DNA from: an uncultured Clostridia bacterium
Lineage (GTDB): Bacteria; Bacillota; Clostridia; Christensenellales; UBA1242
Assembly: GCA_944383415.1 (NCBI GenBank)
Contig: CALWPK010000006.1
Location: forward strand, 28,224-92,223
Reading direction: 5' to 3'
DNA length: 64,000 nucleotides
Position numbers and translations under genes: made by a program. Under the pieces are notes generated by a model. It searched no databases and was not told where the DNA came from. It saw only the letters and a list, made by a program, of their open reading frames with translations. The stretch's first letter is position 1. Each line of letters starts with the position of its first letter. Positions 7,676 to 10,322 of this stretch are shown in pieces.

Positions 7676-7945
7676 TTATTTATTTTGGTAGTCTTTTGAC
7701 AATCGCTTTGCTTTTTTGTTTATCTCTATTGCTCGCGATTGCAATGAAAAAAGGATTATTTTAATCTCGTTCATTTTTGTTTTGATTTTTATCTTTTCTT
7801 TTTCACTAGCAATTTTATATTTATCTTTCAATTGGGTGTACACATTTATTATTTTTTTCAATTCTTCATTGACTTTGATTTGCTCGTCTAATATGGCGTT
7901 GAACCGCGCGAGCAGATCTTGTTCAATTTCCTTTTCTTTTTTCAT
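7676..7945 (-). CDS. Hypothetical 89-aa Lys/Glu-rich coiled-coil protein
   Basis: The ATG at 7945 lies 1 nt after the stop (7947-7949) of the upstream LRR gene. The SD TAGGAG lies inside the end of that gene, which indicates translational coupling. Confidence 0.6.
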   Translation of the reverse strand: MKKEKEIEQDLLARFNAILDEQIKVNEELKKIINVYTQLKDKYKIASEKEKIKIKTKMNEIKIILFSLQSRAIEINKKAKRLSKDYQNK

Positions 7946-7946
7946 T

Positions 7947-10232
7947 TTAGACTCCTAAATCATTTTTTAATTCATCAATTTGCCATAATGTATATTGCTC
8001 TTTTGCACTATCACCACTATAATTAGAACCGTCAAATGCGAAATCTTCATAATTTAGTGCATTGTATAAAGTAATTGAATTTTTATCATTTTGTATTATT
8101 TGAGGTTGCAAATCATTTAGATGCATCCCCACATTGATGATTTTCAAAGGGTTGTTTGGGAATTCCTCGTTGTATTTTGTTGCGAATGCGACAATGGCTT
8201 TTTTATACTTTTTGTAGATCAAATTTTTATCGTCATTGTTCAAGTCGTTATTGACTTCCACATTGTTGCACACGCCATATCCTTCTTTCCTATTTACATA
8301 GAGAGTAGATTTAGCGACAATTTTGCCCGTATGGTCGCGAATGACGATATTTTGTACATCTGGATGTACGATGCTAGCACGCATAATTCCATTCCCTGCA
8401 CCCTCTATGTGTGCACAGCACGAACATAGTTTTCCTAGTATAAAATTGAGCGGATCACTTTTTTTCAATAATTCGAAAGTAAATTTTTTGTTTGATAAAT
8501 CTGTTAGGGTAGAAAGGGTGTCGATTGAAGTAGATTGAACGACCTCAATCAATTTATCTACTTTTTCGAATACTGTATCTTCTTTCAATTCTTCGCTTAA
8601 AATATTATCTGGGATTTTGTTTTCTTGTCTCTCATTATATATTTTTATCGCTTTGTCAAAACTATTTTGTCTTGAAAAATATGGGGATATTGTAGACGCG
8701 ATTTCTCTAGTCTCATCTGTGATGCCTGAGAATTTGTTTGTTGCGAAATATGCTTCGAAAAATTCGACAGTGGGCGCGAGCCTTCTTTGACTCCCTCGAT
8801 TGTTGGTATGAGCAAATTGAACTGATTCAAAATCATTATAGCATCTGGCAATGAAACCTTGATGTTTTTCTTCCGCTGCCATCAATTCTTGGAAGTTATT
8901 TTTATCCAGAAAAAAGTCTGCAAAACCTTGTTTGAAACCTAATGGCTTCATCTTATCAAACATTGCGTAAGATTCTGAAGGATCAAAAGATCCATCCATT
9001 ATCCTATCTTTTATAAACTCTCTTGCTTTTTGAGCATAATCAATTGTTTCTATTTTTTCTTTTCCTGATTTTGATACGCTTTTTATAGTCACAGGCTTAG
9101 GATTAAGTACGCCGATATTTTCACAAAATTTGTAAAAGTTATTTTTTTGCATATAAGAGTTTTCAAATTCTTTATTAGAAATTATATTGGAAAGATTGTT
9201 TAAACTTTTATAATTATAATCAAAAATTTTAGAGTAATCGACCGGTTCACCATTTTTCATCTTTTCATTATCTTGTAATTGAATATATTTAGCAAATGAA
9301 TTATCTATTTTATTTAGTATTTTTCTCTTCTTTTCATCATCGAAAAATTCAATAAAATAATGAAATAGTAGAGGATTAATTTGTTTAGATTTATCTATTG
9401 GATGATTTAATCCCTTAAAATATAATTTCATTAGATAACCATTTTCAGTTTTCTCCAACTCCGCATCGTAAATAAGGAATAACCACAAGTCGTCGTATAT
9501 TACATCGTTATTGGCAATATTTAGTTCTACATACTCTAGATTATTGCATCCTGAAAAAGCACCTGAACCTATATGGGTAACAGATGAAGGTATGACAATT
9601 CGATTTAATGAGACGCAGTTATAAAACGCTTTATCAGCGATGGATTTGACAGAATTAGGAATAGATACATCCTTCAAAGAAGTGCAACAAGAAAACATTT
9701 CTCTACCGATTGAGACGACCGAATTTGGTATAACTATTTGATTCAAAGCCTGGCATTGATAAAATACAAAGTCTCCCATAGAAGTAATAGAATTTGGTAG
9801 ATTGATAGTCTCTAGTGAGGTGCAATATGTGAAGGCACTCTTGCCGATAGTTTTGACAGAATCTGGAATGGTCACACTCTTCAAAGAGGTGCAATTTGCA
9901 AATGTATTTTCGAGAATTGAAGTAATAGAATTAGGAATGATGATTTCTTTTAGCGATGTGCACCACCTGAATGCCGAACTTCCTATAGAAGTAATTGAAT
10001 TTGGAAGTGAAATGTATTTCAAAGAAGTACAGCGTGAAAATGCCCTTTTACCTACTGAGACAACAGAATTTGGTATATTAACTTCGGTCAATGCTTCACA
10101 ATTGTAAAATACATGTTCATTTATTGAAGTGACGAAATCTGGAATTGAAACGCGAGTAATGTCTTTTCTCACTTCTATAACGGCAGTCCCCTGTATCAGC
10201 AATTCATTCATTGTTTTAACATCATCTTTCAT
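7947..10232 (-). CDS. BspA-type leucine-rich-repeat protein without a signal peptide, fused to a large uncharacterised C-terminal region
   Basis: About 9 tandem 23-25-aa repeats (IPNSVxSIGxxAFxxCxSLxxI) span aa ~30-235. The N-terminus MKDDVKTMNELLIQG is hydrophilic. The C-terminal ~525 aa belong to no family I recognise and contain a CSCCAH cluster. Confidence 0.85.
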   Translation of the reverse strand: MKDDVKTMNELLIQGTAVIEVRKDITRVSIPDFVTSINEHVFYNCEALTEVNIPNSVVSVGKRAFSRCTSLKYISLPNSITSIGSSAFRWCTSLKEIIIPNSITSILENTFANCTSLKSVTIPDSVKTIGKSAFTYCTSLETINLPNSITSMGDFVFYQCQALNQIVIPNSVVSIGREMFSCCTSLKDVSIPNSVKSIADKAFYNCVSLNRIVIPSSVTHIGSGAFSGCNNLEYVELNIANNDVIYDDLWLFLIYDAELEKTENGYLMKLYFKGLNHPIDKSKQINPLLFHYFIEFFDDEKKRKILNKIDNSFAKYIQLQDNEKMKNGEPVDYSKIFDYNYKSLNNLSNIISNKEFENSYMQKNNFYKFCENIGVLNPKPVTIKSVSKSGKEKIETIDYAQKAREFIKDRIMDGSFDPSESYAMFDKMKPLGFKQGFADFFLDKNNFQELMAAEEKHQGFIARCYNDFESVQFAHTNNRGSQRRLAPTVEFFEAYFATNKFSGITDETREIASTISPYFSRQNSFDKAIKIYNERQENKIPDNILSEELKEDTVFEKVDKLIEVVQSTSIDTLSTLTDLSNKKFTFELLKKSDPLNFILGKLCSCCAHIEGAGNGIMRASIVHPDVQNIVIRDHTGKIVAKSTLYVNRKEGYGVCNNVEVNNDLNNDDKNLIYKKYKKAIVAFATKYNEEFPNNPLKIINVGMHLNDLQPQIIQNDKNSITLYNALNYEDFAFDGSNYSGDSAKEQYTLWQIDELKNDLGV

Positions 10233-10293
10233 ATTCTCTCCAATAGATTTGCGTTATAAAATTTGTATTATTTTGTTTAATTATAATGACCAT

Positions 10294-10322
10294 AATATAT
10301 CAAGTTTATCAAACAATGTCAA
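10294..10322 (-). promoter_or_regulatory. Consensus sigma-A promoter with extended -10 for the LRR operon
   Basis: The minus strand reads TTGACA (10322-10317), a 17-nt spacer ending in TGa, then TATATT (10299-10294). It lies about 60 nt upstream of the ATG at 10232. Confidence 0.65.

Follow-up and report, generated by a model that had tools for sequence, protein, structure and literature searches.

What does a leucine-rich repeat (LRR) protein do that carries no recognisable export signal, ends in a long C-terminal half without a match to any family and is coupled at the level of translation to a small second gene? The question is raised by a two-gene unit on the minus strand of a 64,000-nucleotide (nt) stretch of DNA, hereafter the window, from an uncultured Clostridia bacterium of the order Christensenellales (assembly GCA_944383415.1, contig CALWPK010000006.1). 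The first gene encodes a protein of 761 amino acids (aa) with BspA-type LRRs at its N-terminus, and the second an 89-aa partner rich in Lys and Glu. The reading that we favour, tentatively and at slightly less than an even chance, is that the large protein is an intracellular enzyme of a new GNAT-like family, directed to its target by the LRR region and attended by an accessory modulatory subunit; the activity is predicted from modelled structure and sequence conservation. What is new here is the conservation pattern of the partner, the novel fold of a middle domain, the mosaic and fast evolution of a syntenic locus, transcription in vivo, and a set of negative tests concerning PcfJ, phages, plasmids and the type VII secretion system (T7SS).

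Fold and conserved core of the C-terminal module

Residues 245-761, hereafter the module, gave no match in Pfam, NCBIfam, PADLOC or PHROGs, in agreement with the initial annotation, which could assign this half of the protein to no family. The check proposed there, AlphaFold and Foldseek, was carried out with an AlphaFold2 model of the same residues (51-sequence alignment; predicted local distance difference test, pLDDT, 87.8), and resolved a helical domain without a match in the PDB, followed by a domain of GNAT topology. The first of these, the middle domain, is mostly helical with a single beta-hairpin, and contains the conserved motifs DYAQK, GFIARCYN and TSNRGSQRQLKPTVE. When modelled separately it reached a pLDDT of 88 and a predicted template modelling (pTM) score of 0.77, and Foldseek found no known fold for it in the PDB, the best match having an E-value of about 1.

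In the C-terminal domain the modelled strands (b) and helices (a) follow one another as b1-a1-a2-b2-b3-b4-a3-b5-a4-b6, which is the complete GNAT order. In the numbering of the modelled fragment, to which 244 must be added to obtain protein numbering, these elements span 340-345 (b1), two short helices, 370-378 (a2), 382-389 (b2), 394-403 (b3), 408-416 (b4), 422-446 (a3), 454-458 (b5), 465-471 (a4) and 502-507 (b6). The top 50 Foldseek matches in the PDB were all GNAT acetyltransferases (SpeG, Gcn5/PCAF, NatD, PseH), with E-values of 5e-4 to 5e-3. The domain is thus predicted to be GNAT-like, the GNAT superfamily being its sole significant structural relative.

Nowhere is the protein more conserved than in the Cys/His block of this domain, which had first attracted attention as a CSCCAH cluster with the look of a metal site or catalytic core. 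The cluster (residues 603-608, 8409-8426 on the minus strand) belongs to a loop between a1 and a2, and in 212 sequences C603 is conserved at 97%, C605 at 95%, C606 at 100% and H608 at 97%. Directly after it, at the N-terminus of helix a2, follows the turn G611-x-G613-x-G615, in which G613 is conserved at 100% in the same 212 sequences and G611 and G615 at 90% or more in 51 sequences. More generally, conservation reaches 93% or more at 36 positions across 212 full-length modules; 27 of these lie in the GNAT-like domain, where they are mostly polar. The near-invariant polar residues (K591, N596, K601, C603, C605, C606, H608, Q627, K641, T643, N647, Y652, N656, Y687, N688, N706, D741 and Q746) map to the loop between a1 and a2 and to strands b3-b6. 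Its conservation and its position within a GNAT-topology domain mark the Cys/His block as the conserved core, with a putative metal-binding or catalytic role. We know of no GNAT family with a CxCCxH-GxGxG loop between a1 and a2.

Among viral proteins, the best fold match by far was A0A7G9A3X2 in BFVD (E 6e-11, 364 columns), which comes from a metagenomic phage, is 656 aa long and is uncharacterised. The match extends beyond the GNAT-like part; tblastn against phage records found nothing.

The LRR region and cellular location

The N-terminal part of the protein consists of nine repeats of 23 residues, as many as had been estimated at first sight, and is a bona fide member of the BspA-type LRRs, with a score of 250 bits for Pfam LRR_5 (PF13306) against a cut-off of 27.7. 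The best solved relatives of this region by profile are 4fs7, 4gt6 and 6mlx. In spite of this membership, an intracellular location had been predicted from a hydrophilic N-terminus without possible upstream extension, and both observations were confirmed. The maximum Kyte-Doolittle mean over 12 residues is 1.27, as compared with 2.9 in the membrane-anchored LRR protein of the same genome, and an in-frame stop lies seven codons 5' of the ATG (open frame of 768 aa), so no N-terminal extension is possible and the hydrophilic N-terminus MKDDVKTMNELL is genuine. Likewise, no Sec-type hydrophobic N-terminus or transmembrane window was detected in the 761-aa protein or in 222 of the 223 family members that start with Met, all 222 of them LRR-bearing, according to a heuristic based on hydropathy and not to a trained predictor. 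The sole member with a transmembrane-like segment, P0101 (433 aa), is LRR-less and has a hydrophobic N-terminal region where the others have LRRs and the middle domain; it could represent a chimera or a variant tethered to the membrane.

The features of a BspA-type surface adhesin, i.e. a signal peptide or a membrane or cell-wall anchor, were accordingly not found in the 761-aa protein. A T7SS route was also rejected. The genome from which the window derives (1.09 Mb, 96% complete) contains no WXG100 gene, and of its FtsK-type ATPases only one is a clear FtsK_SpoIIIE match (an FtsK-like 1079-aa frame), a second match being marginal (25.9 bits), which leaves no EssC-like second ATPase; the 761-aa protein itself has no Pfam match to LXG or another known export domain. 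With neither Sec signal nor transmembrane segment, no WXG100 gene and one clear FtsK-type ATPase, an intracellular location becomes the default reading, and on these sequence features the protein is probably intracellular.

The main challenge to this location is an effector or adhesin exported by an unconventional route, whose LRR region would bind a molecule of the host or of a neighbouring cell for the module to modify, and whose gene arrays would provide variety of targets or antigens. Such a protein would fit the typical use of BspA-type LRRs as modules of the cell surface or of host interaction (cell-surface proteins are also what the LRRs match best here), as well as the confinement of the family to host-associated gut metagenome-assembled genomes (MAGs), the arrays that combine variable LRRs with a conserved, catalytic-looking C-terminus and its invariant Cys, the eight copies in a genome of about 1 Mb from the same genus, and the fast evolution of the locus (see below). 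Conversely, it has to contend with the lack of a signal peptide throughout the 222 members, the lack of a WXG100/EssC-type T7SS in a 96%-complete genome and of LXG or any other known export domain, and with a module that shows no NEL or XL-box similarity and whose fold matches are GNATs. Export is in our view unlikely, albeit the likeliest of the alternatives, and the intracellular enzyme is retained as the preferred reading.

A conserved but not obligatory companion

Small ORFs (open reading frames) of the partner type, 78-103 aa long and rich in Lys and Glu, follow 15 of the 61 family genes for which enough downstream sequence is available, and begin at -35 to +15 nt relative to the family gene's stop codon. 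They align over their full length with the common pattern EY..IL.E, LK..Y..(N/A)P.D, N.R.K.L. On the tree of the module, partner presence is clustered, with 7 state changes as compared with 13.6 in shuffles (0 of 500 shuffles were as low), and the partner-bearing genes fall into several deep, well-supported clades, which forces at least four changes. The association is therefore old, but the partner has often been lost or is not needed. The partner family is small: a profile search recovered 16 clusters. Five divergent partners searched against Pfam, NCBIfam, PADLOC and PHROGs returned only sub-threshold coiled-coil noise, and the 89-aa partner has a chance-level PADLOC match (E 0.031). The partner is a real, conserved companion. 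The coupling of the two genes described in the initial annotation is upheld by homologous companions in deep clades, but it is not obligatory: within arrays the partner follows one or two paralogs only. This patchy presence argues against an obligatory antidote and fits an accessory subunit that could act in trans on the module.

The same arrangement, a small translationally coupled gene right after an enzyme-like C-terminus, could be expected of a toxin-immunity or toxin-antitoxin pair, and GNAT-fold toxins do exist; the GNAT-like domain would then be toxic in the manner of the TacT/AtaT class and the downstream protein would provide immunity or act as antitoxin. We regard this as highly improbable, as most family genes have no partner, single-copy ones included, and as a conserved C-terminus behind a variable N-terminus is the opposite of what polymorphic toxins show. 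In GNAT toxin-antitoxin systems the antitoxin is a ribbon-helix-helix (RHH) protein encoded upstream, and the acetyl-CoA motif is canonical; both features are missing here.

The initial annotation had named two outcomes that would speak against it, namely a C-terminal half matching a known surface or structural domain together with signal peptides in the homologues, and a pair that is not kept together in other genomes. Neither outcome was observed in full: no such domain and no such signal peptides were found, and the pair is kept together in 15 of 61 cases.

Distribution and evolution of the family

The module family comprises at least 128 clusters at 90% identity, and 980 representatives at 50% identity were retrieved from metagenomes at E ≤ 1e-3, 438 of them at E ≤ 1e-30; for the roughly 1000 clusters at 50% identity in public metagenomes, the best available annotation is "leucine-rich repeat protein". 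One cluster in the public collection (P0003) is identical to the 761-aa protein. The module almost always forms the C-terminal end of proteins that are 600-1350 aa long and begin with LRR_5; the GNAT-like domain itself invariably follows the helical domain of 315 residues and, in nearly all cases, LRRs. Every named source is an uncultured gut MAG, from chicken, rabbit, roe deer, mouse or Hadza humans, and bears the label Clostridia, Bacilli, Christensenella or Candidatus Onthoplasma. The family is thus confined to uncultured gut Bacillota, with no cultured source.

Within the genus, the family is carried by 5 of 25 genomes, including that of the window, in 1, 1, 1, 1 and 8 copies, and it was found in none of 16 other genera of the order. 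The genome with eight copies (G165) is only about 1 Mb in size, and their retention suggests that the family probably matters for how these gut bacteria with reduced genomes live. Tandem arrays, with up to five family genes per sampled locus, are common. In the arrays of Candidatus Onthoplasma faecigallinarum and a near relative (L003, L015, L016, L017) and of G165, with five or more genes per locus, the LRR regions measure 213-516 aa, a 90-aa partner follows some copies only, and the arrays take up about 2% of a 1-Mb genome.

The combination of an LRR region with an effector-like module, recognised early on, is reflected in the way the two parts diverge. The LRR solenoid is the variable part of the family, in which the number of repeats and the residues on the surface change rapidly. 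Nine close members were compared, namely the 761-aa protein, its counterpart at the syntenic position and paralogs of the Onthoplasma type: their N-terminal parts vary from 213 to 516 aa with an average identity of about 49%, whereas the module is on average about 66% identical. The difference is also apparent in one orthologous pair (L003:3190-5559 and L015:13190-15484), in which the module is 95% and the LRR region 70% identical. Here the synonymous (dS) and non-synonymous (dN) divergences are 0.83 and 0.26 in the LRR part, and 0.18 and 0.03 in the module. The 4.5-fold higher dS of the LRR part implies that the two halves of the gene have different histories, and indicates a mosaic history through exchange of LRR cassettes, or through homogenisation of the module, by recombination or gene conversion. 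Positive selection on the LRR was rejected, with dN/dS at 0.31 in the LRR and 0.16 in the module and no gene-wide signal.

A relative (L002) holds the pair at the syntenic position, between infC-rpmI-rplT and YhhN/aldehyde dehydrogenase. The LRR-module proteins of the two genomes are 62% identical and the partners 45%, as compared with 83-96% for the flanking proteins; judged by these identities, the pair is a fast-evolving locus in a conserved frame. Such fast, mosaic evolution of LRR and partner points to a molecular conflict. In the relative, three extra small genes (L002:1888-2878; a helix-turn-helix (HTH) protein and ORFs of 49 and 180 aa) are located between rplT and the SpoU methylase gene, and these three are missing from the window.

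The link to defence or pattern recognition that had been put forward as speculation would amount to a system against phages or mobile elements, with an LRR that senses a protein of the invader and frees the activity of the module, which the partner otherwise keeps inactive. The plan of variable sensor and conserved effector, the patchy distribution in 5 of 25 genomes of the genus, the array expansion and the fast-evolving locus would all be compatible with such a sensor-effector system. One homologue locus, moreover, lies next to a serine recombinase and HTH/sigma-like genes, and another homologue near Imm26. The former (L012:1-6600, from a Clostridia MAG) has two family genes adjoining the recombinase, several HTH regulators and a sigma-70 region-2-like gene, and is a possible integrated element carrying the family. 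Nevertheless, positive evidence for a defence link was not obtained. The large protein has no match in PADLOC and the partner only the chance-level one given above. The Pfam scan revealed no STAND/NTPase domain (NACHT/NB-ARC/AAA) or known effector domain, and the middle domain has no fold match. The pair resides between housekeeping genes, in a position shared with the relative, and seven sampled contexts have only paralogs and the partner in common, without a recurrent defence or mobile neighbourhood. Homologues are likewise absent from phage and plasmid collections (tblastn against 50,697 phage and 72,556 plasmid records), and a scan of IMG/VR yielded no relative of the family; on these grounds a phage or plasmid origin was rejected. 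Finally, five to eight tandem copies in a 1-Mb genome would be rare for defence genes. A defence role is therefore very unlikely, and the link proposed earlier is not sustained.

Gene organisation and transcription

The two ORFs, their junction and the Shine-Dalgarno sequence of the partner inside the LRR gene were read directly from the sequence and are as first described (Table 1). A single nucleotide separates the stop codon of the large gene, TAA at 7947-7949, from the partner's ATG at 7945.

Table 1. Positions of the features of the two-gene unit, counted from the first letter of the window.
Feature	Position	Strand	Basis
LRR-module protein P0001, 761 aa	7947-10232	-	ORF call
Lys/Glu-rich partner P0002, 89 aa	7676-7945	-	ORF call
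Nine 23-residue BspA/TpLRR-type repeats, residues 28-236	9525-10151	-	Pfam LRR_5, E 4e-75
Middle domain, residues 265-579, mostly helical with one beta-hairpin	8496-9440	-	AlphaFold2
GNAT-topology C-terminal domain, residues 580-761	7950-8495	-	AlphaFold2 and Foldseek
Loop C603-S-C605-C606-A-H608-I-E-G611-A-G613-N-G615, between a1 and a2	8388-8426	-	Translation and alignment
Shine-Dalgarno GGAGAG of the large gene	10236-10241	-	Read from sequence; spaced 4 nt from the ATG at 10232
Shine-Dalgarno AGGAG of the partner gene	7952-7956	-	Read from sequence; within the last codons (L-G-V) of the large gene
Sigma-70-type promoter, TTGACA (10322-10317), 17-nt spacer with TG, TATATT (10299-10294)	10294-10322	-	11/12 match, extended -10
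AU-rich hairpin, 15-bp stem AAAAAACGAAAUUAU / AUAGUAAUUUCGUUUUUU	7525-7608	.	Minimum free energy -25.8 kcal/mol, z -2.0

Apart from the large gene, the window indeed has no genuine minus-strand ORF that reaches 150 aa. The pair is bordered by housekeeping genes, with infC-rpmI-rplT on one side and YhhN/aldehyde dehydrogenase on the other. The claim that it is much more AT-rich than its neighbours, on the other hand, did not hold: the large gene has a G+C content of 32.5%, within one standard deviation of the 35.2 ± 3.8% of 48 other ORFs, and low G+C is confined to a local stretch of it. A foreign base composition was thus rejected.

The consensus promoter with extended -10 was confirmed. The unit's own terminator, likewise described at first, held up less well: an AU-rich stem flanked by A and U runs is present between the partner gene and the convergent YhhN-like gene, but a consensus terminator scan called none on the minus strand, this hairpin included; it is a possible bidirectional terminator.

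The stretch is present in four chicken-gut metatranscriptome assemblies. One contig, from a single run, covers 7050-9242 and hence crosses the junction between the two genes, and further contigs extend to 10264, just inside the predicted 5' untranslated region, where coverage ends. The spacer between the divergent promoters (10341-10674) has zero coverage in any of the runs. Together, these limits agree with a start of transcription shortly after the -10 element. The gap, which matches the predicted promoter, speaks for RNA and against contaminating DNA. As to the notion of a strongly promoted unit, the consensus match supports it, whereas contig depth over the pair, a poor measure of expression, was about 5-23 as compared with about 600-900 for the divergent infC operon. 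A second promoter, TTGACA-17-TATAAT with an upstream TG, is found at 10644-10672 on the plus strand (12/12 match), divergent from the LRR unit, and presumably drives infC-rpmI-rplT.

No fewer than six further large LRR_5 proteins, 831-1990 aa long, are encoded in the genome (window 39193-42399, plus strand, and contigs C1, C5, C6 and C11). None of them contains the Cys-loop module, one has an N-terminal membrane anchor, and two, including the 1068-aa ORF of the window, have an identical Lys-rich N-terminus.

Proposed function

According to the reading that we favour, the LRR region would select a macromolecular target, on which the module would then act, most likely by transfer of a group (acyl or related) or via a covalent, Cys-dependent step. 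The CxCCxH loop could supply nucleophile and base, or alternatively a metal site, and the GxGxG turn at the N-terminus of a2 may bind phosphate and so stand in for the missing pyrophosphate-binding loop. The 89-aa helical partner, translationally coupled to the large gene and rapidly evolving like the large protein, probably binds the conserved module as a modulator, be it an inhibitor, a chaperone or an adaptor. As it accompanies only some of the paralogs in an array, it would probably act in trans or be dispensable, rather than serve as an obligatory antidote.

Several points weigh against this proposal. Activity, ligand, metal, target and contact with the partner are all putative, and the assignment of the domain is itself based on predicted structure. 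The GNAT matches are weak, with template modelling (TM) scores of about 0.5 on the target, a root-mean-square deviation of about 7 Å and identities of 9-14%, and acetyltransferase profiles matched neither the protein at E ≤ 1 nor any of eight family members at E ≤ 10. The Q/RxxGxG/A pyrophosphate (acetyl-CoA) motif at b4-a3 is absent. Furthermore, 46 of the 61 family genes lack the partner, among them many single-copy ones, the missing Sec signal leaves room for unconventional export, and the RNA evidence consists of assembled contigs, which may contain DNA. As for the cofactor, the loop after b4 (NNDLNNDDKN in the 761-aa protein) is variable and glycine-free in the alignments; given a GNAT-like fold without a pyrophosphate loop, any cofactor site would not be the standard one.

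The absence of the canonical acetyl-CoA motif, and the failure of acetyltransferase profiles to match any member, would be expected of a non-catalytic scaffold or pseudo-enzyme, in which the Cys3-His loop would hold a structural zinc and the GNAT-like domain would form a binding platform; the protein would then serve as an LRR adaptor, with the partner as a structural co-subunit. Three Cys and one His within six residues do resemble metal-binding knuckles, and GNAT folds have been reused as binding domains. Still, the some 18 near-invariant polar residues on elements of the GNAT cleft (b4, b5 and the a1-a2 loop), maintained in 212 divergent sequences, exceed the usual need of a structural site, and the GxGxG turn at a helix N-terminus suggests binding of a ligand such as phosphate. 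A scaffold is for these reasons distinctly unlikely, and an enzyme remains the preferred interpretation.

If the module is an enzyme, it would represent a new type of active site on the GNAT fold, combined with a new helical domain. A bolder version, which we consider unlikely as a whole, would see in the family a new class of LRR-directed enzymes of gut Bacillota that modify proteins or other macromolecules. Their catalytic centre would be new as well, with CxCCxH as a metal or nucleophile loop and a relocated, phosphate-binding Gly-rich turn on a GNAT scaffold, and would be supported by a new helical fold. The arrays would then constitute a diversifying repertoire against fast-changing targets, such as host proteins, proteins of neighbouring cells or invading elements, and the partner a dedicated inhibitor or guard.

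Comparison with known systems

A search of the literature on PcfJ, on BspA with Clostridia and on LRR_5 with GNAT turned up nothing relevant. Of the known systems, the GNAT superfamily (SpeG, Gcn5/PCAF, NatD, PseH) resembles the C-terminal domain in predicted strand and helix order, and in that the conserved residues lie on the cleft elements b4, b5 and a1-a2. The module differs from it by the lack of a profile match and of Q/RxxGxG/A after b4, and by the presence of the CxCCxH-GxGxG loop. BspA/TpLRR proteins (4fs7, 4gt6, 6mlx) share with the 761-aa protein the nine bona fide LRR_5 repeats; the classical ones are, however, secreted or surface-anchored, whereas the module family is signal-less and has an enzyme-like C-terminus.

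Several PcfJ-like phage proteins appeared among the BFVD fold matches with E-values of 2e-3 to 2e-2, at low TM scores of 0.14-0.17 on the query. PcfJ-like proteins (PF14284) are similar in length (about 510-550 aa), in a helical N-terminal part followed by a C-terminal alpha/beta domain, and in the order of motifs, which runs helix, Cys/His motif, helix, 'hhVIR' strand and 'TLEh' strand; their motif is HCVxxY, as opposed to CxCCxH in the module. Membership was rejected, since PF14284 gave no match and two hhalign runs with 10 PF14284 domains collected from 400 genomes returned E-values of 0.22 and 0.33. The genome of the window likewise has no match to PF14284.

With TacT/AtaT/KacT the locus shares an enzyme-like GNAT-fold domain beside a small, tightly coupled gene. 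Here, in contrast, the partner is downstream, helical and K/E-rich, has no RHH or DNA-binding signature and is missing in 75% of the family genes, and the large protein has 761 aa and LRRs.

The nearest analogy, in logic and not in ancestry, is offered by the LRR-NEL E3 ligases IpaH/SspH and by XopL (LRR-XL-box), in which a variable N-terminal LRR region is likewise joined to a conserved, catalytic-looking C-terminus with an invariant Cys, with several paralogs per genome and without a Sec signal. The type of LRR is different, and the all-helical NEL or the XL-box takes the place of the GNAT-like domain. Moreover, no type III or other dedicated secretion system was found here, and the present family belongs to gut commensals of a Gram-positive lineage. 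If its module is indeed an enzyme, the family would provide a Gram-positive counterpart to the plan of variable LRR and conserved catalytic domain that is so far represented by proteobacterial effectors.

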